Source of the DNA: Promethearchaeia archaeon
Lineage (GTDB): Archaea > Asgardarchaeota > Lokiarchaeia > Sigyniarchaeales > SOKP01
DNA: 12,261 nt
Direction: 5' to 3'
NCBI GenBank assembly: GCA_029856125.1
Contig: JAHQWJ010000001.1
Location: forward strand, 1-12,261
Within the stretch, counting starts at the first letter, position 1. The number at the start of each line of letters is the position of its first letter. The notes beneath the pieces are model-generated. The model saw nothing but the letters and a program-made list of their open reading frames with translations, ran no database searches and was not told the DNA's origin. A program made the position numbers and the translations under genes. Positions 1 to 12,261 of this stretch are shown one piece after another.

Positions 1-1255
1 CTCTTTTTTTGATAATCTGAGAAATTGAATTCCCCTGCATGACATCCTCAATAAAGCTCTTAGCTATTTTAGATGTGATTTTCCCTTCTCTTATGTATTT
101 GATTAAGTCCCCTATGTGTTTGGGAGTCAGTTTGGTTTGATCGATTGTTAAATTATTCTCGTTTAGCCAACCAGATATATTGTTCATTAACCAATTACAG
201 AATTGTTTGTATTCTTTAGATCCAAAAGTAGGATCGGCGTTTGCTCCAGCTTCATAAAAATCCGCAATGCGTTTATCTAAAACTAAATTTTCTGCATCAA
301 ATTCCGATAACATGTATTCTCTTCGAAGCCTTAGTGCTCTTTCTGTTGGCATTTCTGGCAAATAACTTTTAACTTGCTCAATAAAAGCATTATCAACCTC
401 GATTGGGACCAAGTCTTGTTCAGGAAAATAACGGTAATCTTCTTCGAATTCTTTTGACCGTAATGATTGGGTGATCCTCATTTTATCGTCCCAATGTCTT
501 GTTTCTTGAATTAACACTTTTCCCCTTTTTATTGCGTTTTTTTGCCTTATGATCTCATGTCTTAGTGCTCTCTCAACTTCTTTGAAACTGTTGATGTTTT
601 TTACTTCACTACGTTTGTTTCCTTTTAAAGAAATATTAGCATCAACTCTAACTGAGCCCTCTAGCTCGATGTTAGAAATCCCTGTATATTGAATAATAGA
701 TTTCAGTTGTTTTAGAAATTCTCTTGCTTCTTCAGGTGAACTAATAACTGGTTCAGTAACGATTTCAATAAGGCAAACTCCAGAGCGATTGTAATCTACT
801 AAAGTATACGGTGACGATGCGATGCTTCCCTTATGAACTAATCGCGCAGGATCCTCTTCAAGATGAATTCTGTTTAATATAATATCTTTTTTATGATTAT
901 TTAACCTAATCGTAATTTTGCCTCCATCTGCAAAAGCCTTACCTCCCGCTTTATTGTATTGGCTAATTTGAAACCCCTTTGGTAAATCTGGATAATGGTA
1001 ATTTTTACGAAAAAACCAAAATTGACGATTGATATTACATTTTAAAGCTAAAGCTAACCTAGTAGCAAAATTGATGGTTTTCTCATTTATTACTGGAAGG
1101 GATCCAGGTAACCCTAAACAAATAGGGCATACAAAAGTGTTTGGTCCTGCATTACGATAATCATTGCTACAACTACAAAAGAGCTTTGTTTTTAGATTAG
1201 TCAATTGAATGTGGACTTCTAGTCCAATAATCACTTTTTTGTCTTGGTCACTCAG
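1..1255 (-). CDS. gatB: Asp-tRNA(Asn)/Glu-tRNA(Gln) amidotransferase subunit B, 3' end beyond the window
   Basis: Absent from the ORF track. My translation of segments of the minus strand gives GatB motifs VIIGLEVHIQL, KTKLFCSC, RKNYHYPDLPKGFQISQY, RIHLEEDP, VDYNRSGVCLIEIVTEP, EGSVRVDANISL, EVKNINSF, QETRHWD and RSKEFEEDYRYFPEQDL. It directly follows gatA. Start uncertain: CTG at 1255 has an SD; GTG at 1234 or 1270 are alternatives. Confidence 0.96.
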   Translation of the reverse strand, partial: MSDQDKKVIIGLEVHIQLTNLKTKLFCSCSNDYRNAGPNTFVCPICLGLPGSLPVINEKTINFATRLALALKCNINRQFWFFRKNYHYPDLPKGFQISQYNKAGGKAFADGGKITIRLNNHKKDIILNRIHLEEDPARLVHKGSIASSPYTLVDYNRSGVCLIEIVTEPVISSPEEAREFLKQLKSIIQYTGISNIELEGSVRVDANISLKGNKRSEVKNINSFKEVERALRHEIIRQKNAIKRGKVLIQETRHWDDKMRITQSLRSKEFEEDYRYFPEQDLVPIEVDNAFIEQVKSYLPEMPTERALRLRREYMLSEFDAENLVLDKRIADFYEAGANADPTFGSKEYKQFCNWLMNNISGWLNENNLTIDQTKLTPKHIGDLIKYIREGKITSKIAKSFIEDVMQGNSISQIIKKR

Positions 1256-1256
1256 A

Positions 1257-2744
1257 TTACTTACCTCCACTTGCCAATTGGGGCGTTTTTCGAAAAATTC
1301 CTAGCTCTTGTTCAAGCTGATATCCAATATTGAGAATTCCTTTTTCATCAAAATAATCTCCAATAATCTGAAAACCTATGGGTAAATTATTGCTATCAAA
1401 ACCACACGGAATTGAAAGTGCAGGGATTCCCGCTAAATTAACAGAACAAGTTAAAATATCTTGAGTATACATTTCCAAGGGATCTTCAATTAATGATCCA
1501 ACCTTAAACGCTGTAGAAGGCATTGTTGGGCAGACGAGCGAATCACATTTCTTAAATGCTTCAACAAAATCTCTTCTAATTAGGGATCTAACTTTCAAGG
1601 CTTTAATATAAAACATATCATAATATCCTGCCGATAGTGCAAATGTTCCTAAATAAATCCTTCTTCTTACTTCAGGTCCAAAATTTTCTCCTCGTGTTCT
1701 ACTAAACGCACTATAAACATCGCCCGAAAGAGCGTCTTTGACTTTACCATACCTTAATCCATCATATCTAGCTAAATTTGAGCTTGCTTCGCACATGCAC
1801 AATAAATAATATGTAGCAATTGTGTATTCTAAATGAGGAATTGAAACCTCAACAGTAGTTATTCCTAAACTCTCCAATTTCTCGATTGATTGATTTATCG
1901 ACTTCTTCACTTCTTTATTAATCGCTTCTCCGAAAAATTCTTTTGGGATTCCAAGTACTTTTTTTTCAATCGGTTTTTTTAATTCTTCCGTATATTTATC
2001 AACTTTAATATCTACTGATGTCGAATCGAGGGGGTCTTTACCTGATATGATCTCAAGGATTAATGCTGAATCGTAAACACATTTCGTAATTGGACCAATT
2101 TGATCTAATGAATTTGCAAATGCGACTAATCCATAACGCGATACTCTACCATAAGTTGGTTTTAACCCTACAACTCCACAAAAGGCTGCGGGGCATCTAA
2201 TACTCCCCCCCGTATCGCTCCCTAAAGCAAAAATAGCTTGACCTGAGGCAACAGCGGCAGCAGATCCACCACTCGATCCTCCAGGAACCCTTGTTAAATC
2301 CCAAGGATTATAAGTAGGTCCATAACAACTATTTTCTGTGGATCCTCCCATTGCAAACTCATCCATATTTGTATTGCCAATATGGATTGCCCCTTCTTTT
2401 ATTAGGCGATCGATAACGAATGCATTGTAAGGAGGACGATATCCCTCCAATATTTTTGATCCACAAGTCGTTGGAAACCCCTTTACGCAGATTAAATCTT
2501 TATTAGCTAAGGGTAATCCATAAAGCTTTCCTATTTTTTTTCCCTTCTTTAAATTATCATCATATGTTTTTGCTTTTTGTAAACTCTTTTCTTTATCGAG
2601 ATTAACAAATGAGTGTAGTTGAGACTCAACTTCATCTATTCTCTTATAGCATGATTCAAGAATATCTTGTATTTTAATGTCTCTGTCTTTAATCTTTTCG
2701 ATTAATTCATATCCCATGTATTCATAGAGCTTCATTGACACCAA
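1257..2744 (-). CDS. gatA: Asp-tRNA(Asn)/Glu-tRNA(Gln) amidotransferase subunit A
   Basis: Amidase signature PGGSSGGSAAAVA...LGSDTGGSIRCPAAFCGVVGLKPTYGRVSRYGL, plus GatA-specific EASSNLARYDG and FGPEVRRRIYLGTFALSAGYYD. Adjacent to gatB. Start is TTG 2744 or ATG 2735. Confidence 0.97.
   Translation of the reverse strand: MVSMKLYEYMGYELIEKIKDRDIKIQDILESCYKRIDEVESQLHSFVNLDKEKSLQKAKTYDDNLKKGKKIGKLYGLPLANKDLICVKGFPTTCGSKILEGYRPPYNAFVIDRLIKEGAIHIGNTNMDEFAMGGSTENSCYGPTYNPWDLTRVPGGSSGGSAAAVASGQAIFALGSDTGGSIRCPAAFCGVVGLKPTYGRVSRYGLVAFANSLDQIGPITKCVYDSALILEIISGKDPLDSTSVDIKVDKYTEELKKPIEKKVLGIPKEFFGEAINKEVKKSINQSIEKLESLGITTVEVSIPHLEYTIATYYLLCMCEASSNLARYDGLRYGKVKDALSGDVYSAFSRTRGENFGPEVRRRIYLGTFALSAGYYDMFYIKALKVRSLIRRDFVEAFKKCDSLVCPTMPSTAFKVGSLIEDPLEMYTQDILTCSVNLAGIPALSIPCGFDSNNLPIGFQIIGDYFDEKGILNIGYQLEQELGIFRKTPQLASGGK
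1263..1268 (-). promoter_or_regulatory. Shine-Dalgarno-like GGAGGT for gatB, inside the last codons of gatA
   Basis: The minus strand reads GGAGGT-AAGTAAT-CTG-AGT-GAC, a 7-nt spacer to an in-frame CTG. Confidence 0.6.
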
Positions 2745-2931
2745 ATCACTAAAAGAGAATCAATAAGGAACAGTTAATCCTTATTTCTTAAACTTATAAA
2801 TTCAAGTACACTAAAAACTTTACTCATTTTTCATTCAATTCATTTTACTATTTCCTACCTTAAAGTTTAAATCCATAATATTCTATTTTCTATATTGATT
2901 TAGCAAAATAAAATCTCAAATTAAATTTGAA

Positions 2932-2936
2932 GGTGA
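2932..2936 (+). promoter_or_regulatory. Shine-Dalgarno-like GGTGA upstream of the extended hydrolase frame
   Basis: AAGGTGAT-CTAA-ATA, a 5-nt spacer from GGTGA to the in-frame ATA at 2942. Confidence 0.5.
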
Positions 2937-2941
2937 TCTAA

Positions 2942-3826
2942 ATAACAATAATAAATAATGAAGGTAAATTTAGTGATAATTATTATCTTATAGATGGAAT
3001 GACAATGGGAATGCCTAAATTTCTTTCAATTTACGTTATTGAAAACAACGGTATGCGACTAATGATTGATGTTGGAGAAACATTAAAAGCTCGTAAAGTT
3101 ATAAAAAAACTCAAAGATTTTGGGCTTTATCCTATTCATAAAATCGTATTAACTCACTCTCATTGGGATCATGCTCAGGGTATCTCAAAATTATATAATT
3201 CAATGAAAGATTTGGATGTAGAGGTTTTAGCTTCTGAAAATGCGGTAGAAAATTTAAAACATCCGGAAAAAATGATTAAGGGGTTTGAGGGATTTGATGA
3301 GGTATATCCTTTCGAAGGAGAGATTACTCCATTAAAAGAAGGTGACATAATCGATATAAATGGGTTAGAACTAGAAGTTCTAAATTTTTTTGGACATACA
3401 ATGGATTCTATTGGTTTATTTGATAAGATAAATAAAAATATATTCGCTGGAGATGCAGCAATAAACAGGTTAGACCAAGATGCCTTTTTTGTTCCTCTAA
3501 TGCCACCTGATTTTCATGAACAAGAACTTCTTAAAACATTTAATAAATTACGAGATACGAGAAGCGAACTGAACTCAATCTCATTATCACATTTTGGAGT
3601 ATGGAAAGATAAACACTTTGAACAAATATTAGATGAAATGGAAGTTTTATACTTTAAAGTTAAGGATTCCTTAATTGAATGGTATCATGAAAACCCATCA
3701 ATTGACTTTATAACAAATAAATATTGCAGAACCTTAATCCCAAATTCAAAATTTTGGAACGAGTCTTTTTTTACAGTTGTCATTGAAATGATGATAAACG
3801 GTTTAAAAATAAGTGGATTTTTATAG
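2942..3826 (+). CDS. Metallo-beta-lactamase-fold metallo-hydrolase, substrate unknown
   Basis: Motifs IDVG, THSHWDH (HxHxDH), GHT, AGDA and SH. The first ATG is at 2999, but the frame is open from 2942 and adds ITIINNEGKFSDNYYLIDG, which looks like the normal first strands of the fold. Confidence 0.9.
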   Translation: MTIINNEGKFSDNYYLIDGMTMGMPKFLSIYVIENNGMRLMIDVGETLKARKVIKKLKDFGLYPIHKIVLTHSHWDHAQGISKLYNSMKDLDVEVLASENAVENLKHPEKMIKGFEGFDEVYPFEGEITPLKEGDIIDINGLELEVLNFFGHTMDSIGLFDKINKNIFAGDAAINRLDQDAFFVPLMPPDFHEQELLKTFNKLRDTRSELNSISLSHFGVWKDKHFEQILDEMEVLYFKVKDSLIEWYHENPSIDFITNKYCRTLIPNSKFWNESFFTVVIEMMINGLKISGFL

Positions 3827-3850
3827 AGAAATCAATATCGCATTAATCAA

Positions 3851-3866
3851 TTATTTTTTTTCTTTT
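3851..3866 (+). terminator. Possible archaeal oligo-T terminator between the convergent hydrolase and asnS
   Basis: TTATTTTTTTTCTTTT about 25 nt after the hydrolase stop. Weak evidence because the window is AT-rich. Confidence 0.35.
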
Positions 3867-3904
3867 ACACAGTGATCTCTGTCATATGATTTATAATTAT
3901 AAGA

Positions 3905-5206
3905 TTAAGGAGATTTTCGTAACATAGTCCGGGGAAATGGGATAGAATCTTTAATATTATCCAAACCGCATATCCATTGGACGACACGTTCCACTCCTAA
4001 ACCATAACCTGAGTGAGGGACGCTACCATAACGTCTCAATGCAAAATACCAACTATAATTCTCAGGGTCTTCGCCATCAGCTTCCAATCTTCTTTTCATG
4101 TCTTCAACTAATAAACTTCTTTCCGAGCCCCCTATAATTTCACAATAGCCTTCTGGAGCTAACATGTCGAAACACAACGCTTCTTTGGGATTTTCCTCGC
4201 TTGGTGGTTTATAAAACCCCATTATCTCTGTTGGATAATGCGTTACGACTACAGGGACTTTGAAGTGTTCAGCTATTTTTTCTTCTTCTTTTGTTCTTAA
4301 ATCTTTACCCCATGGAACATTCATTTGATATTCATTGTTAAGGATTTCTAATGCTTCAGCATACTTGATAGTAGGATATTCAGCTTTCGCGTAGTGTTCG
4401 AGTAATTTAATGTCCCTTTCTAATATTTCAAGTTCCTTTTTGTTGTCCTTCAGAACTTCTTGGACAATAAATCTAATTTCATCTTTAGCAACTTTAACAG
4501 CCCCATCGAGCGTCATCCACGCAGCTTCCATTTCTGCCATCCAGAATTCCGCTAAATGTCTTGAAGTTTTTGACTTCTCCGCTCGAAATGTAGGTCCCAT
4601 ATTATATATTTTTCCCAGCGAGAAGATACCAGCCTCAGCATACAACTGCCATGTTTGACTAAGATACATTATATCATCAAAATATTTAACTTCAAATAAC
4701 GTAGCACCGCCTTCAGATTGGCTAGGTTGGAAAATAGGCGCATCAAATTCGTAGTAACCACGACCTCTAAAAAAACTATGGATCGCTCCGACTACTGTGT
4801 GGCGTATTTTTAAAATTGCGTTCAATTTTCTTGACCTTATCCACAGATGTCTATTGTCATATAAAAGTTCAGGAGATTGGTGTTCAGTAATTGGGAACGG
4901 ATCGGCAATTTGGATAATTTCCAACTCCGACACAGAAACCTCAAACCCCGTGGGTGCTCTTACATCTTCCTTTAACTCGCCAGAAATCTTGACTGAAGAT
5001 TCAATTGTCAGCTTTTCCGCTTTTTCAAATATCTCTGGACTTTTACTTTTGGGAATGACACATTGAATTATTTCAGATTCATCTCTCAACACGATGAAAA
5101 CAAATTTGTTTGAGGCTCTTTGTCGGTATATCCATCCCCTTAAATTAACCTTACCAGATCCTTTTTTCAAAGCTTCTTCAATTGTTATATATTCTGATTC
5201 CTTCAT
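3905..5206 (-). CDS. asnS: Asparagine--tRNA ligase (class IIb)
   Basis: N-terminal OB fold (LRGWI...FIVLRD...IQCV), YLSQTWQLY, motif 2 FRAEKSKTSRHLAEFWMAEME, EIIGGSER, and motif 3 RRYGSVPHSGYGLGVER. EFWMxExE, EIIGGS and YGSVPHSG distinguish AsnRS from archaeal AspRS. Confidence 0.95.
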   Translation of the reverse strand: MKESEYITIEEALKKGSGKVNLRGWIYRQRASNKFVFIVLRDESEIIQCVIPKSKSPEIFEKAEKLTIESSVKISGELKEDVRAPTGFEVSVSELEIIQIADPFPITEHQSPELLYDNRHLWIRSRKLNAILKIRHTVVGAIHSFFRGRGYYEFDAPIFQPSQSEGGATLFEVKYFDDIMYLSQTWQLYAEAGIFSLGKIYNMGPTFRAEKSKTSRHLAEFWMAEMEAAWMTLDGAVKVAKDEIRFIVQEVLKDNKKELEILERDIKLLEHYAKAEYPTIKYAEALEILNNEYQMNVPWGKDLRTKEEEKIAEHFKVPVVVTHYPTEIMGFYKPPSEENPKEALCFDMLAPEGYCEIIGGSERSLLVEDMKRRLEADGEDPENYSWYFALRRYGSVPHSGYGLGVERVVQWICGLDNIKDSIPFPRTMLRKSP

Positions 5207-5306: not shown

Positions 5307-5855
5307 TTATATAATAAATACTGCTGCTGCTAAAACAGAAGCCCACTCATCTTTATTTCTAACGGTAGCATATTCTGTTATATTTTTAGTTTCAACAATT
5401 TTCCCTCCCATTTTAAAGACTTCGCGTTTTTCATCGTAATTAGCGTTGGGATCAAATAGAAAACCCAAAGTTGTAGCTAACATCTCTACTGCTAAATCTT
5501 CGGCGTAGTCCCCTGTTTTTTCTGGTTTTTCCCCAAATGTATGATGTTCACTTAAATATCCATATTGATCTTTATCAGCAGGCATTGCAACACCTATTGA
5601 TGCGCAAACGCCGCGCTCTAATTCTTTAGACTCTGCTCTAGACATAACAATATATAGAATCTGTCCTGGAAGGAGTTGTTCTAAACCATCTTTCTTACTT
5701 ATTTCAACACAATGGGGGGGTAAGATCGAAGAAACATTTACTAAATTAAACTTTTCAATTCCCGCATTTCTAAGCGCTTGCTCAAAAGCTCCTAACTTAG
5801 ATTTATGATAACCTATTCCTTTTACAAAAAAGACTTTCTTAGGAACAAATGACAT
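5307..5855 (-). CDS. pdaD: Pyruvoyl-dependent arginine decarboxylase
   Basis: VPKKVFFVKGIG, AFEQALRNAGIEKFNLVNVSSILPP (Ser-Ser self-cleavage site), YGYLSEHH, AEDLAVEMLATTLG and terminal AAAVF; 182 aa. Confidence 0.95.
   Translation of the reverse strand: MSFVPKKVFFVKGIGYHKSKLGAFEQALRNAGIEKFNLVNVSSILPPHCVEISKKDGLEQLLPGQILYIVMSRAESKELERGVCASIGVAMPADKDQYGYLSEHHTFGEKPEKTGDYAEDLAVEMLATTLGFLFDPNANYDEKREVFKMGGKIVETKNITEYATVRNKDEWASVLAAAVFII
5772..5846. repeat. Direct repeat copy 1 (5' coding region of pdaD)
   Basis: Hand alignment to 11557-11630 gives 69 of 75 positions identical (5 mismatches, one 1-nt gap), including a perfect 36-bp core, 5796-5831 = 11581-11616. Confidence 0.95.
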
Positions 5856-5960
5856 GATTTTAATTAGGTTCTTATAGCTTTAAGTTTTATCTTTTGAAAC
5901 TTCCTTCATTTTCGATTATAAGAGAATAGTAGATAATAAAAAAAAAATTGTATAGATGTA

Positions 5961-5969
5961 TTTAATAAA
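5961..5969 (+). promoter_or_regulatory. Candidate TATA box for dhs if translation starts at ATG 5992 on a nearly leaderless mRNA
   Basis: TTTAATAAA lies 23-31 nt upstream of ATG 5992, and no SD is visible. The AT-rich context makes this weak. Confidence 0.3.
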
Positions 5970-5991
5970 TCTAGAATGTTTAATTTTAATT

Positions 5992-6981
5992 ATGAATAAA
6001 ACACATAAAGAAGATTACTTAAATCAAAAAATAACTCCGTTTAATGTTAATGAAGTGAAAAATGTAGACGACCTTTTAAGAGCTCTTAAATATTGTGGAT
6101 TTCAAGGAAGAAACTTAGGGAAAGCTTTAGATATTCTTTATAAAATGGTTAATAATGCTGACATTTTAACTGTATTAACTTTAAGTGGTGCTATGATTCC
6201 CGCAGGTATGGGAGATTTAATTTACACATTAATGGACCATAAATTAATTGATGTTTTAATTACTACAGGAGCAACTATCATACATGATTTAGTAGATGCA
6301 TTAACTGATGTAGGACATTATATAGGAAGTGCTACCATAGATGATAATGAATTGTTTAAATTGAGAATTAATAGAATATATGATACTTTACTACCTGAAG
6401 AAAATTATAAGATAGTTGAAGACGTTTTATCAGAGATAATTCATGAAATATTTGAATTTAAAGAAGTTAACATTTTACCTTCAGATCTTTTAACTAAAGT
6501 TGGTGAAAAATTAAATAAAAGAAGTCTTTTAGCTGTGGCTGCTAAAAACAACATTCCTATTTTTGTCCCTGCATTTTCTGATTCTGAATTTGCATTAAAC
6601 TTAATCAAATATTCTATAAAAGAAGATTATAAGTTCAATTTTGATATTCTTGGAGACGTATTAAAATTTGCTGATATTATAAAAAAATCCAGAGAATCTG
6701 GTACATTAATAATTGGAGGGGGTGTTCCTAGAAATTGGGCTCAGCAAATCTTTCCCTTACTTGATAAAATTGAAAAAGTTGAGAGGATGGGGTACAATTA
6801 TTCAGTTAGAATACATACTGCTACTGAATATGATGGGGGTCTTTCAGGGTGTACAATTTCTGAATCAAAAAGTTGGGGAAAATATTCTTTAGAATCAAAA
6901 TATATAAGTGTATGGTGTGATGCAACCATAGCATTACCAATTTTAATTACTGGATTATTACAGAGATTGAAAATCATCTAA
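5992..6981 (+). CDS. dys: Deoxyhypusine synthase family protein
   Basis: GFQGRNLG, LSGAMIPAGM, ITTGATIIHD, INRIYD, PIFVPAFSDSE, IIGGGVPRNW, DGGLSGCT..ESKSWGK (active-site Lys) and CDATIALP. The ORF track starts at 5956; the second Met (5992) is the more likely start. Confidence 0.93.
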   Translation: MNKTHKEDYLNQKITPFNVNEVKNVDDLLRALKYCGFQGRNLGKALDILYKMVNNADILTVLTLSGAMIPAGMGDLIYTLMDHKLIDVLITTGATIIHDLVDALTDVGHYIGSATIDDNELFKLRINRIYDTLLPEENYKIVEDVLSEIIHEIFEFKEVNILPSDLLTKVGEKLNKRSLLAVAAKNNIPIFVPAFSDSEFALNLIKYSIKEDYKFNFDILGDVLKFADIIKKSRESGTLIIGGGVPRNWAQQIFPLLDKIEKVERMGYNYSVRIHTATEYDGGLSGCTISESKSWGKYSLESKYISVWCDATIALPILITGLLQRLKII

Positions 6982-7054: not shown

Positions 7055-8518
7055 TCATCCAATTACATGATAATGTAAGGAAGAATGATGCCAATATCTT
7101 GGAGATATAATATACGCTAAAGGTCTTTTTCTCACATATTTTTCTAAATCTTTTTCTAAGAAAGTATATGCTAAAAGATGGACAATTGGGATTATTAGTT
7201 GTGTCCATTCATCATATTGGCTTTGTGAGAAGCTATTTTCAATTCTGATGATTTTTGGATTCATTGCTAATATAAGAGCATATTCAATTAATTCAGGTAT
7301 AAACTTTGCACTCTGAGCTCTTAAGATGTTCATTTCTGCTCTTAATAGAATCATCCAAGTTTCCTTAACATCCCATGGAAATAAAGCTGAAACCGATGCA
7401 AAGAATTTTGAACCTTCAGGAATATCGCGCAACAAATCATTAAAATAGTTTAATTTTGATAGATCTCCTATAAAGGGTATAACAAATGAAGCATATACAA
7501 CTTCTTCATTACTTAAAGAACCTATCGGTTGATCCTTAAAGATTTTAATTAGATTTTTTATGTAATCATCACCCAACGCTTTACTTCCATTATGAAGAGA
7601 CCAGTTCGAGAATAATCTTCCGATTATTGAAATGGCTTTTATAATCTTTTGCTTTAGACCATATTCATATAAAGATTCTCTTATCTCATTGGCGGGATTA
7701 TCTTTTCGATATTCATATTGCATATTTCTTTCAATTTTTAGGATATCTCTATTTGTGTCAGGTTTGCTTAATTGAGGATTTCTCATAAAATTAATAGAAA
7801 GTGTCATCATTCTCTTCTCTGCTTGTGTGTAGGTATATTCTCTTTTTGATATCGAATTAAATGCATTCTCTAATTTATTTAGATTAGAATTTAACAGAAA
7901 AACGGCCCAAATTGGAGAAAATACGCCAGTTTTCATTATATCGCCTACTCTATCAATTAAGGAGGAAAACTCTTCATCTAGTTGTTCGATAAGATTATTC
8001 AAATCGTTTAAATTCCTTGATAGAAACCTATCTCGAGCTTCAATCTCATCAATCATATTATCCCCTATAGGCGTTAAGATTACATTTTTTCCATTGACTT
8101 TTACAGCCTGATTAATAGACTGCTTTTGATCATTTAATTTTAAAATTTGATCCTTAATAATACTGACTTGAGTATCCATCTTTTTTATCTCATTCTTCAA
8201 TTTAGAAATTTGAGACTTCAACTTCTTTCCTTTTCCAATTTGTAAATAACTAACTAACTTACTACCTAAAGAGGCATGTTCATATTCTCTTTCTATGGAT
8301 AATAACTCCTTATTCAGTCCATGAATCTCGCCATTTAGTCTATCATAATTCATTTTAAGGGTATTTATCTCACCTTCCATTGGTAGAACGGTACTTTCCT
8401 TTCCATATTCGCTGATAAATGAGAACTTCAATAAATCTGAAATCTCATCAGAAGAACAAGGAATATCTATCCTTTTTTTAATCGATGTTAATATTTCTAA
8501 GGCTCTTTTACAATCCAT
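7055..8518 (-). CDS. Hypothetical protein, 487 aa: N-terminal coiled-coil hairpin apparently inserted in a winged-helix-like domain, helical C-terminal region, His/aromatic tail
   Basis: Long ORF with GGTGA 6 nt before the ATG, 1 nt from the upstream stop. Heptad pattern at aa ~48-81 and ~97-137, VILTPIG at 146-152, ends YWHHSSLHYHVIG. Confidence 0.85.
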   Translation of the reverse strand: MDCKRALEILTSIKKRIDIPCSSDEISDLLKFSFISEYGKESTVLPMEGEINTLKMNYDRLNGEIHGLNKELLSIEREYEHASLGSKLVSYLQIGKGKKLKSQISKLKNEIKKMDTQVSIIKDQILKLNDQKQSINQAVKVNGKNVILTPIGDNMIDEIEARDRFLSRNLNDLNNLIEQLDEEFSSLIDRVGDIMKTGVFSPIWAVFLLNSNLNKLENAFNSISKREYTYTQAEKRMMTLSINFMRNPQLSKPDTNRDILKIERNMQYEYRKDNPANEIRESLYEYGLKQKIIKAISIIGRLFSNWSLHNGSKALGDDYIKNLIKIFKDQPIGSLSNEEVVYASFVIPFIGDLSKLNYFNDLLRDIPEGSKFFASVSALFPWDVKETWMILLRAEMNILRAQSAKFIPELIEYALILAMNPKIIRIENSFSQSQYDEWTQLIIPIVHLLAYTFLEKDLEKYVRKRPLAYIISPRYWHHSSLHYHVIG

Positions 8519-8519
8519 T

Positions 8520-9695
8520 TTAATTCACCATTTCAAGTAATGGAATTTCTACTGAGGGAATTTCAGTTCCCCCTAATACAATTAATAAATCTTTATTTTG
8601 ATTTTTTGAATATGCGAAACTGTCTCGATTTATAGCAAGTTGGATGAGAAGTGCTAATTCTTCTCTCTGTCTATTCCAAGACATTTGTGAACCATTTAAT
8701 TGGTGACGATATGAATCTATTTTAACTAGGGCAAAAAGAAATTCAAAAACTAATTTTTCCCACTCCTTAGTTTGAGTTTCTGCGAATTTATCTTGAGGTA
8801 CAGCTTTCCATATCAATCCTTCTAAGTCAGCAAAGTGAATTGTACCATCAGGAGCTACCACACAATCTTTATCTAGCCATACATCTTGATATATGATTCC
8901 TGTTATAATGTCTCCTTCTTTTTTTGCTGACCTCGAAAATAAAGACAATAACGCTATCCCGCTTTTGATAAAGTTGATTTCAAATTTTTCAATAAGTTTT
9001 TCGGTATCTAAATTAAATAACGAAAAGAAAGAACTAGGATTAGCAACTAGACGAGAAGATTCAAAATACAATCGTATATTCGAAGGCATTAGTCTAATTT
9101 CCTGATAAAAATGATCTTTATAAGTGTTAAACCAAAAAAACTTACGAGCCACTTCTTCAATTTCAGGAGGTAATTTTACGACTCCTATCACAGGGCAAAT
9201 GTGAGCACCATTGATGGAATCTATTTTTGCTAACTTAGAGAAAGCTAGCTCATCAAAAGCATTGATAAAACCTTGACAACCATATGGGCTTTCTCCCATC
9301 CATGATTCGCCCATAATAAAACCTGTACCTGTTGTTAATTTATCTACAAGATGAAGGTACGTAGAATCGCGACAAGCATTTCGTATATGAAGAGGCGATA
9401 ATAATTTTCCTTCGTACATATCTTCATATGCTCCACAACCTTTAATTGCTAAAAAGAAATTTTTACCGTTTAAATTGACTGAAAATTCTGGAAATATTGC
9501 GTTGCGATTTTCATCTTTTATCGCATTTATTTTCGGTTCTTTGATATTATGTAATTCCGCCGTAGCAGGACCTATGTATCCTTTTATCCATTTCTTATGG
9601 GATTTGAATTGCGGATTTATTGCTGAAATTTCTGCATTTACAGAATATAATACTATATCTATTGAATCATGAAGAAATTGTTCGAAAGTATTCAA
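8520..9695 (-). CDS. Hypothetical protein, 391 aa, divergent protein-kinase-like / SelO-like fold (inferred)
   Basis: The TTG start overlaps the upstream TGA (TTGA) and has AAGGTGA 7 nt upstream. Motif order DENRNAI, LAIKGCG (K85), DELAFS (E149), RLMPSNIRL, YQDVWLDKDCVV, HFADLEG (D290). The CDS is secure; the fold call is moderate. Confidence 0.75.
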   Translation of the reverse strand: MNTFEQFLHDSIDIVLYSVNAEISAINPQFKSHKKWIKGYIGPATAELHNIKEPKINAIKDENRNAIFPEFSVNLNGKNFFLAIKGCGAYEDMYEGKLLSPLHIRNACRDSTYLHLVDKLTTGTGFIMGESWMGESPYGCQGFINAFDELAFSKLAKIDSINGAHICPVIGVVKLPPEIEEVARKFFWFNTYKDHFYQEIRLMPSNIRLYFESSRLVANPSSFFSLFNLDTEKLIEKFEINFIKSGIALLSLFSRSAKKEGDIITGIIYQDVWLDKDCVVAPDGTIHFADLEGLIWKAVPQDKFAETQTKEWEKLVFEFLFALVKIDSYRHQLNGSQMSWNRQREELALLIQLAINRDSFAYSKNQNKDLLIVLGGTEIPSVEIPLLEMVN

Positions 9696-11368
9696 AAGCG
9701 TCTCACCTTTACTTTAGGCATTTTAGTTCCAAATAGAGTAACCGTTCCCAATTTTGGGGCATCAAAATCATCATAAATATTCTTTGCGGGACTATTCCAT
9801 TCAGCAATTTCTGTTATAGCAGAATTACATCCTAATTCTTTCAAAATTGATAATCGAGCATTTACTAATGCTCTACCAATTCCTTTATTTCTGAAAGCAG
9901 GATGAACATACAGGCCATATAACCATCCAGTTTCTTTTCCTGGAGTAGAAAATCCAACGCCTAATAGTACTCGGTCTAAATATATTTCTGGTTTTCTATA
10001 TTTTCTTTTGATGATTTCTTTTAAGATATCTTTAACCCATTCTTCTTCGGGAGAAGCTGTTGCGATAACAATAATATCACTCTTCGCCGCTTCAATAACC
10101 CATTTTGCATCCCTTTTTTTTGTAGTACCGCTATCTTCATTAGCAATTAATCTCATGATTGCCTCTAAATCTTGAGCTCTTGCAGGCTCAATTAGATTAG
10201 CATCATAATGAACTTCCATTCCCTGTAAGTATTCGATCTTAAATACGTCATATTTCTCGATAGTTTTAAAACCAAAGAGTTTAGAAAGTTCCGCATGGGC
10301 ATATTTTACTTTAGTATATAATATTAAGTCTTCAGAATATTTTCCAAAAAATGTTCCAACCTTTCCATTCGGTTCAATAAATCCAATACCTTTAAGGTTT
10401 TCTTGATTATGAGCAGAAACGATTGTTTTTCCTTGAATTTTTGCTCTGGAAAGATATGCAAGGATCATTTCTGAATAAGGAGAATCAACCGAAAATTCTA
10501 ATCCTCCAAGCATTTTTCTCTCTACGACCACTTCTTGCTTTTTACCTTGCGCTCTTATAACTCTTGGTCTCCATCTATAATGTTCATAGACTACATAAAA
10601 AATTATAGCAAAAAATAATAATGGACTCCAATAGGCCAGGAGATACATCCAAATGCAAAATGGGCGTAAATAACTTGAAGATGTTATAAATACATATGAA
10701 TTCAATACAAATTCTGAATAATAACCACTACTATAACCAATATCTTCTTCGTGTAATACCTCTCCAATTAAATACCCTTCAGGAGTAAAATATTCATCAA
10801 TTGTGTAAGTGGCTTCAAATTGTCCATATACATCATTTCTTGAATATTGCCCCGCAGACGTTAATCGTTTTCCTGTAAATGGCATGAGATGTCCTAACCA
10901 AATCATACCATCACCAACAAATTCATAAGTCTCACCTAACATGGAATAAGTGTTGGTTTGAATTCCCCCAGGTATATGAAACCAGACGTTTAGTCCGGTA
11001 GCATTATACTCTTGATCACCAAAAGAAAGATATTGTCCATCTAATAATGAATAAGTAAAAGTATAGTAATCAGTTCCCCCGTAATCCTCTTCGAGATATC
11101 CTTCAAGCCAACTCTGAAATGTCCAAGTAATTGCGCATGAAACACTGGCGGTTGATCCACTATAATCAACTTTATAATTTCCATTTGCCCTAAAGTTCTC
11201 CGTATAACCTAGATACCATCCTCCAGTTCCAGTAATGTCCCAATTGTAAACATAATCAAATTCTAAGTCATGATCTGAAAATTTTATACCAAGATACGGA
11301 ATTCCAAATAATTGAATAATAACTGAAGTTATCAGCATTAATATAAATAATATCGATCTTTTTTTCAT
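9692..11368 (-). CDS. Membrane-anchored GNAT-family N-acetyltransferase with a predicted extracellular N-terminal domain
   Basis: MKKR plus a hydrophobic segment (aa ~5-28), a Tyr/Gly/Thr/acid-rich domain (30-235), a second hydrophobic segment (~239-261) followed by RWRPR, and a C-terminal acetyl-CoA motif A LYVHPAFRNKGIGRAL with WNSPAKNIY. Confidence 0.88.
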   Translation of the reverse strand: MKKRSILFILMLITSVIIQLFGIPYLGIKFSDHDLEFDYVYNWDITGTGGWYLGYTENFRANGNYKVDYSGSTASVSCAITWTFQSWLEGYLEEDYGGTDYYTFTYSLLDGQYLSFGDQEYNATGLNVWFHIPGGIQTNTYSMLGETYEFVGDGMIWLGHLMPFTGKRLTSAGQYSRNDVYGQFEATYTIDEYFTPEGYLIGEVLHEEDIGYSSGYYSEFVLNSYVFITSSSYLRPFCIWMYLLAYWSPLLFFAIIFYVVYEHYRWRPRVIRAQGKKQEVVVERKMLGGLEFSVDSPYSEMILAYLSRAKIQGKTIVSAHNQENLKGIGFIEPNGKVGTFFGKYSEDLILYTKVKYAHAELSKLFGFKTIEKYDVFKIEYLQGMEVHYDANLIEPARAQDLEAIMRLIANEDSGTTKKRDAKWVIEAAKSDIIVIATASPEEEWVKDILKEIIKRKYRKPEIYLDRVLLGVGFSTPGKETGWLYGLYVHPAFRNKGIGRALVNARLSILKELGCNSAITEIAEWNSPAKNIYDDFDAPKLGTVTLFGTKMPKVKVRRF

Positions 11369-11698: not shown

Positions 11699-12261
11699 TT
11701 ATTTTTCCAATCTTTGTAGGTATTTAGAAAATATATTCATGTAAAGGCATTTTTCAGCTTCCATTTCTGGAGTTGATACGGGGTTTTCTGTAAACTCAAC
11801 ATTACTTTCTCTGATAATTACGACAGGAGTTCTTTGATCTGCTTCACTCAATAGAAATTGTGCAGCGCTAGCTAAATCATCAGCTATAGCTCTCTTTGTA
11901 ATTTCCATCGGACGATTGAATAAATCAGGATGTCCTATTAAATCTTCGATTGGTTCAAATCCTGCTGTTGCAATAGCAATTCCTATTGTACCCTTTCTTA
12001 AAGGCTGAACTCTTGAGTCAGCAATAATTAAACCAATATCATTTAGGTTGTATTTATTCTTTAGACTATCGCGATATTCCCAAACTACTTTCGTTAAGTT
12101 GCTTGGTAGTAATACAACCTTGTTGGGTCCAGCGTTAGATTGATCTATTCCCGCATTAGCGATTAAGAAATCATTGACTTTCGCCAATATAACGTGCGTC
12201 ATTCCACCTAAAATCATTGATGCCTCCCTTAATATTAGTTCTACATATCTTTCGTCCATGT
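11699..12261 (-). CDS. cofE: Coenzyme F420-0:L-glutamate ligase family protein, 5' end beyond the window
   Basis: ANAGIDQSN, IIADSRVQPLRKGTIGIAI, DLIGHPDLFNRPMEIT, IADDLASAA and EADQRTPVVIIR are CofE motifs. The N-terminal third is missing, so the Met at 12259 is probably internal. Confidence 0.9.
   Translation of the reverse strand, partial: MDERYVELILREASMILGGMTHVILAKVNDFLIANAGIDQSNAGPNKVVLLPSNLTKVVWEYRDSLKNKYNLNDIGLIIADSRVQPLRKGTIGIAIATAGFEPIEDLIGHPDLFNRPMEITKRAIADDLASAAQFLLSEADQRTPVVIIRESNVEFTENPVSTPEMEAEKCLYMNIFSKYLQRLEK

Follow-up and report, generated by a model that had tools for sequence, protein, structure and literature searches.

A conserved module of a receptor-like acetyltransferase, a SelO/NIS-like kinase-fold enzyme and a protein with an invariant terminal glycine in Lokiarchaeia and other lineages

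The first 12,261 nucleotides of contig JAHQWJ010000001.1 (assembly GCA_029856125.1; this whole stretch is called the window) of a Promethearchaeia archaeon, a member of the Lokiarchaeia (Promethearchaeota), contain three tightly packed open reading frames (ORFs), all on the minus strand according to an ORF check of the window. Gene A (9692..11368, 558 amino acids (aa)) encodes a receptor-like protein fused to a GNAT acetyltransferase, gene B (8520..9695, 391 aa, TTG start) a kinase-fold enzyme and gene C (7055..8518, 487 aa) a protein ending in glycine. The observations support that A, B and C form a conserved functional module. The reading favoured here, with a probability of about 0.45, is that B adenylates the carboxylate of the terminal Gly of C and that C is then conjugated to an acceptor, a reaction which the receptor-GNAT gates or assists. 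It is the simplest one that uses all of the facts. Earlier, a model working from the letters of this DNA (the sequence-only reading) knew of no described system of this composition, and literature searches also yielded no paper on the module.

Among 151 sampled genomes of the host's class B was found in 33, which belong to six genera and three families. C lies directly downstream of B in all 33 (in one case detected by profile only) and A directly upstream in 32, the exception being a contig that begins inside B; one of the 33 loci is split across two contigs. The presence is patchy even inside one genus (18 of 39 genomes), and searches of other Asgard classes did not reveal the module in them. 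A Thermoplasmata-type locus carries it as well: 12 of 301 genomes in the phylum of this locus possess B, followed by C in every case. Judged by source names, proteins of the module families are also present in Bathyarchaeia and Thaumarchaeota, and some relatives of B are labelled Deltaproteobacteria. Two myxobacterial-type contigs of 69 % GC show A-B-C in bacterial surroundings, one of them with a MYXO-CTERM protein, a sigma-54 activator and a lytic transglycosylase near the module. A copy in a complete genome is that of Ca. Harpocratesius repetitus. Plasmid and viral collections gave no match to the module.

By homology, gene A is a natural fusion of two genes which are separate neighbours in many other archaea, namely D, a stand-alone membrane protein related to its ectodomain, and E, a convergent GNAT gene; the module therefore has four parts. 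These occur in at least four gene orders (A-B-C, A-C-B, B facing A-C, and B-C-D with the convergent GNAT gene) and are kept together across Loki, Thermoplasmata-type, Bathyarchaeia and myxobacterial-type DNA, while the flanking genes change freely between loci. Thus homologues of the genes which the sequence-only reading had joined into one module are co-located in distant lineages, and this four-part linkage amid varying flanks speaks for the favoured reading. B without adjoining partners was seen in two of 80 metagenome loci (L099:3179-4387 and L134:2-1084). In a tree of B (FastTree, untrimmed alignment) the split form is a single clade (support 0.99) and the fused forms are not resolved (0.53), so that no order of events is claimed. 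Downstream of C the same four-gene convergent block is present at L032:6518-10369 and in 13 other Loki loci. By eye it looks like formylmethanofuran dehydrogenase subunits, and the site next to it is probably the ancestral one of the module in the family.

The evidence for a substrate role of C comes from its end. Gly is the last residue in 109/109 complete copies (26 clusters at 50 % identity, 10 at 30 %), and a His-x-His motif precedes it in 108 of these; a separate homologue set shows the tail pattern in 119 of 120 proteins. The genome background of a terminal Gly is 2.5 %. At the penultimate position 11 different residue types occur, and His-x-His stands 3 to 16 residues from the end, whereas the last residue is the same throughout. 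In the host the tail comprises aa 469-487 (7058..7114, minus strand) with H482-x-H484 and G487; it is the most conserved part of C, though predicted to be disordered (predicted local distance difference test (pLDDT) below 50). An artefact of a Shine-Dalgarno (SD) motif or of a gene overlap was rejected as the origin of the terminal Gly, because each of the four Gly codons occurs at this position and the operon of the fused form ends with C. The pattern also holds where no gene comes after C, so that the Gly is under selection at the protein level. With its invariant Gly behind His-x-His, C is likely a C-terminally activated substrate. Of the two roles that had been offered for C, scaffold or substrate, the latter is thus favoured over a plain scaffold.

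In the model of C a 90-residue helical hairpin (aa 47-137) is inserted into a small core of helices and strands, to which a helical domain and the disordered tail are added. Fold searches gave no informative match but hairpin-only alignments; also with ESCRT-III/PspA the alignment is confined to the hairpin, at Z about 9-10, a score that unrelated coiled coils reach as well. A search of the Atlas returned the protein's own family, and the C proteins of Loki belong to one family with those of the other lineages (hhalign 97.5 %, E 8e-12). Searches of B and C against Pfam, NCBIfam and PDB sequences yielded coiled-coil noise only. Cys3 of C (window 8510-8512) is retained in 53 of 60 diverse C proteins and could be a metal ligand together with His-x-His, or an acyl acceptor. 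In a few assemblies C is frameshifted or contains stops (L093, L129, G011:C59, G090:C250), and in L032 its ATG is replaced by ACG.

The candidate activating enzyme is B, whose structural model (pLDDT 94.9) is closest to SelO (6eac; Z 15.3, root-mean-square deviation 3.9, 258 aligned residues; Foldseek E 6e-4), in agreement with the SelO/kinase-like enzyme expected beforehand. Ranks two to five are held by NIS synthetases (Z 12.4-9.7; SbnC 12.4, AcsD 11.9), so the five best folds are all AMP-transfer enzymes; conventional kinases score clearly lower (Z about 9). On the basis of the model, B is classified as an unnamed kinase-fold enzyme of the SelO/MchC/NIS branch. The Pfam SelO profile matches none of 49 B members at E values up to 1, and for IucA/IucC no Pfam or PDB sequence match was obtained. 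Invariant in B are R64, K85, E130, R201, R208, D271, D275, K276, D277, D290 and E292, of which K85, R201, R208, D277 and D290 correspond by motif order and spacing to the ATP/Mg ligands of SelO. In the catalytic and Mg-binding loops (aa 271-293; 8817..8885, minus strand) K276-D277 corresponds to SelO D252-N253 by sequence register, not by coordinates. On this register the position of the catalytic base of SelO, D252 of the NTDN loop, is Lys in 49/49 aligned B homologues. A carboxylate nucleophile requires no base.

Distant relatives of B lie among archaeal housekeeping genes such as ribosomal proteins and a proteasome/exosome cluster (L065:201-1406, L066:2102-3373, L166:185-1312). They keep the Lys-Asp pair, have lost W273/D275 and appear from their sequences to be a separate unnamed SelO-like subfamily; partners were not seen on these three short contigs.

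As the most likely chemistry, phosphorylation or SelO-type AMPylation of side chains, which goes back to the sequence-only reading, is disfavoured by the nearest folds, which transfer AMP, and by the Lys that stands at the base position by register. In its full form this would be a relay of two modifications, combining acetylation by the receptor-GNAT with AMPylation or phosphorylation of side chains by B, e.g. of His, Tyr or Ser in the tail of C, the terminal Gly being a docking determinant only. SelO as the top fold match, its ATP/Mg ligands in B, the almost invariant His-x-His of C and the acetyl-CoA motif, intact in 26/26 aligned A proteins, fit such a relay. Against it stand the loss of the SelO base by register, the variable spacing of His-x-His from an end whose last residue is fixed, and the lower scores of conventional kinases, and we regard it as rather unlikely.

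The NIS likeness invites another explanation, a small-molecule pathway. Here B as an NIS-like ligase would couple an amine with a small carboxylate, the GNAT would acylate that amine, and C, with Cys3 and His-x-His, would serve as a metal-binding scaffold. A GNAT-type acyltransferase with an NIS synthetase is the usual siderophore pairing, Cys3 is widely retained and polyamine genes adjoin the module in the window and in two further loci (L095, L151). B shares with AcsD, SbnC and AsbB (IucA/IucC family) the fold branch, an acyltransferase partner and possibly carboxylate adenylation. However, the NIS synthetases are three-domain enzymes of about 580 residues (548-595 aa), and the alignments begin at their residues 131-183, so that only the core aligns with the 391 aa of B, at 9-13 % identity. 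Transporter, monooxygenase and polyamine genes are not regular neighbours, siderophore gene context is missing and the invariant terminal Gly is left unexplained. Such a pathway is therefore improbable.

Gene A begins with a hydrophobic signal/anchor (aa 5-23, 11300..11356, minus strand as for all parts of A; Kyte-Doolittle peak 2.51), followed by an aromatic/Gly/Thr-rich ectodomain (aa 28-232, 10673..11287), one predicted transmembrane helix at about aa 239-261 (10586..10654, by hydrophobicity) and a cytoplasmic GNAT unit (aa 270-558, 9695..10561). Two hydrophobic segments, with starts near residues 5 and 237-243, speak for a receptor-like topology. The GNAT passes the Pfam cut-off (PF00583, E 1.4e-11, residues 470-532, 45.1 bits versus 20.7), and the receptor-like acetyltransferase proposed in the sequence-only reading holds on both counts. 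Its acyl-CoA motif A is intact (R493, G496, G498), E520 and N525 are invariant, and so are R493 and G498 in the 26 aligned A proteins, all of which have PF00583 as partner domain and none of which matches HlyC (PF02794). The ectodomain belongs to no Pfam family. A local search relates it to protein D (E 4e-14 to 1e-7), which has a Pro-rich linker and a zinc ribbon where A has the GNAT; the nearest named Atlas cluster, DUF3108-like (score 0.77), is a lead only. The fusion suggests that receptor and GNAT act together.

In the favoured reading B would bind ATP in the flipped manner of SelO and NIS enzymes and form an acyl-adenylate on the carboxylate of the C-terminal Gly of C. This would be discharged onto an acceptor, for which a protein amine, a lipid head group or a small amine or sugar are candidates, so that C would become covalently tethered. 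The membrane ectodomain may sense an outside cue, and the acyl-CoA-type GNAT, attached or neighbouring, could be the switch, through acetylation of B or C, or else help with acyl transfer as MceI partners MceJ. Besides the linkage, the conserved yet disordered tail with its terminal Gly in all complete copies, the AMP-transfer enzymes among the best folds of B and the Lys at the SelO base position by register support this reading. Carboxylate adenylation is known from AcsD of the NIS family (PMC3323832), and SidJ has a kinase fold able to form an acyl-adenylate on a protein (10.1101/2021.04.13.439722).

Several points weigh against it. The register of K276 follows from sequence spacing only, with a 4-residue insertion, and D275, one residue before, could be the base instead. 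D275 is invariant in the module members, but not in stand-alone relatives; most of the distant relatives that lack it retain the Lys-Asp pair. The alphaC Glu varies (E149 in 17/49). The distant relatives without C on their three short contigs imply that the wider family has other substrates. The GNAT of A is of the classical acyl-CoA type, unlike the HlyC-type MceI, and the module encodes neither an acceptor nor a deconjugating protease. Finally, the terminal Gly could merely be a binding or degradation signal.

The closest precedent is MceIJ/MchCD, where a ribosomal product whose tail is rich in Gly and Ser is modified at its C-terminal carboxylate by a SelO-fold enzyme without catalytic base (PMC3281104, PMC7472721, PMC7680869); according to reviews of the mechanism, MceIJ links a siderophore to this carboxylate with the help of an acyltransferase partner. 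MchC/MceJ are a SelO subfamily of which most have Ser at the SelO base position (PMC3281104 Fig. S4). The module resembles this system in the SelO-fold enzyme with an acyltransferase partner, the base loss in B being read by register only. In contrast, an Atlas feature score of 0.94 is all that connects B with MchC at the sequence level, the GNAT is of the acyl-CoA type and receptor-fused whereas the partner MceI is HlyC-type, and the putative substrate is a protein of 440-600 aa ending in Gly. A small microcin precursor, an exporter or siderophore/enterobactin-tailoring genes do not recur in the module loci read. SelO/YdiU (PF02696) shares the conserved Lys, two Arg and Mg-binding residues with its structural relative B, but the catalytic loop of B is rewired, with Lys at the base position by register and without a conserved alphaC Glu, and B has dedicated partners and lacks a Pfam match. 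In Cap2-cGAS of CBASS, a large protein without ubiquitin fold has a conserved Gly at its end and a variable penultimate position (PMC10097602), as does C. Unlike in the Cap2, Atg8 and ubiquitin systems, the candidate activator is a kinase fold and a membrane receptor-GNAT is present; ThiF-type E1, E2, JAB and CD-NTase domains were not found in A, B, C and D. By analogy B may be likened to MceJ or to an NIS core, yet it falls outside SelO, MceIJ, NIS and E1/E2 systems alike.

A more specific version is doubtful: conjugation free of E1 and E2, in which B activates the last Gly of the hairpin protein C and the receptor-fused GNAT, once the ectodomain is triggered, relays C to a membrane lipid or protein, possibly via a CoA thioester. 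If true, an outcome like that of Atg8 or ubiquitin would be reached via unrelated enzymes common to Asgard archaea, other archaea and myxobacteria. The favoured reading, if correct, would mean a route of C-terminal protein conjugation by a kinase fold instead of a ThiF-type E1, wired directly to a transmembrane sensor. What pseudokinases (SelO, SidJ, MceJ, NIS) are known to catalyse would be extended, and Asgard archaea would gain a receptor class, ectodomain-transmembrane-GNAT. On the rival explanations, too, three unnamed families make up a signalling module that spans domains of life. The reading is directly testable, as two soluble proteins (B and C), a known key residue (G487) and a complete-genome copy (Ca. 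Harpocratesius repetitus) are at hand.

A role in anti-virus defence or as a toxin, which had also been considered from the sequence, would be compatible with adenylation of C by B: the receptor would sense a virus or envelope damage and unleash C or B. The patchy presence, cross-domain spread and variable position, the defence role of C-terminal Gly conjugation in CBASS and an AbiEi/AbiEii pair three genes from the module at L040:12562-14255 fit this idea. PADLOC, however, gave no meaningful match (one weak coiled-coil match only), the viral collections searched contain no copy, the neighbours are mostly housekeeping genes, with the same downstream block in 14 Loki loci, and each of A, B and C is single-copy in the host genome. 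Defence is therefore very improbable.

The close packing of the three co-oriented genes was confirmed in detail. A and B share a TTGA overlap (9692-9695), in which the TTG of B (9695-9693) overlaps the TGA of A (9694-9692); the TAA of B ends at 8520, and a single gap base (8519) separates it from the ATG of C, which begins at 8518. Both internal starts are preceded by the predicted SD-like GGTGA inside the upstream gene: as part of AGGTGA (9703..9708, minus strand) at 9707-9703, 7 nt upstream of the TTG and inside gene A, and at 8529-8525 (minus strand), 6 nt upstream of the ATG and inside gene B. The chance of GGTGA per 10-base window is ~0.005, and only 2.8 % of the long ORFs of the host genome have such a site. 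In the host's family most loci again combine an SD-like site at either junction with 4-nt overlaps or few-base gaps. The Harpocratesius-type loci, where the genes are spaced, lack these sites, and translational coupling is thus a lineage trait. RNA-library contigs of related strains from one study cover A, B and C and bridge both junctions; this evidence is weak because DNA carry-over is possible.

In the neighbourhood of the module, a pyruvoyl arginine decarboxylase and a deoxyhypusine-synthase-like gene are located divergently at window 5307-6981. In the distant locus L095 a gene of the latter type directly precedes A, and in L151 the gene after C encodes an AdoMet decarboxylase. These neighbours are not conserved in other loci, and a polyamine link as core feature was rejected because the flanks vary. 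On the other side of the module (11699-12259) lies a gene for a CofE-like gamma-glutamyl ligase, probably truncated by the contig end, since its Pfam match begins at model position 70 and its relatives have 265-292 aa. Positions 2-5206 of the window carry gatB, gatA and the gene for asparaginyl-tRNA synthetase close together, with a gene of the metallo-beta-lactamase fold among them, an ordinary housekeeping context.

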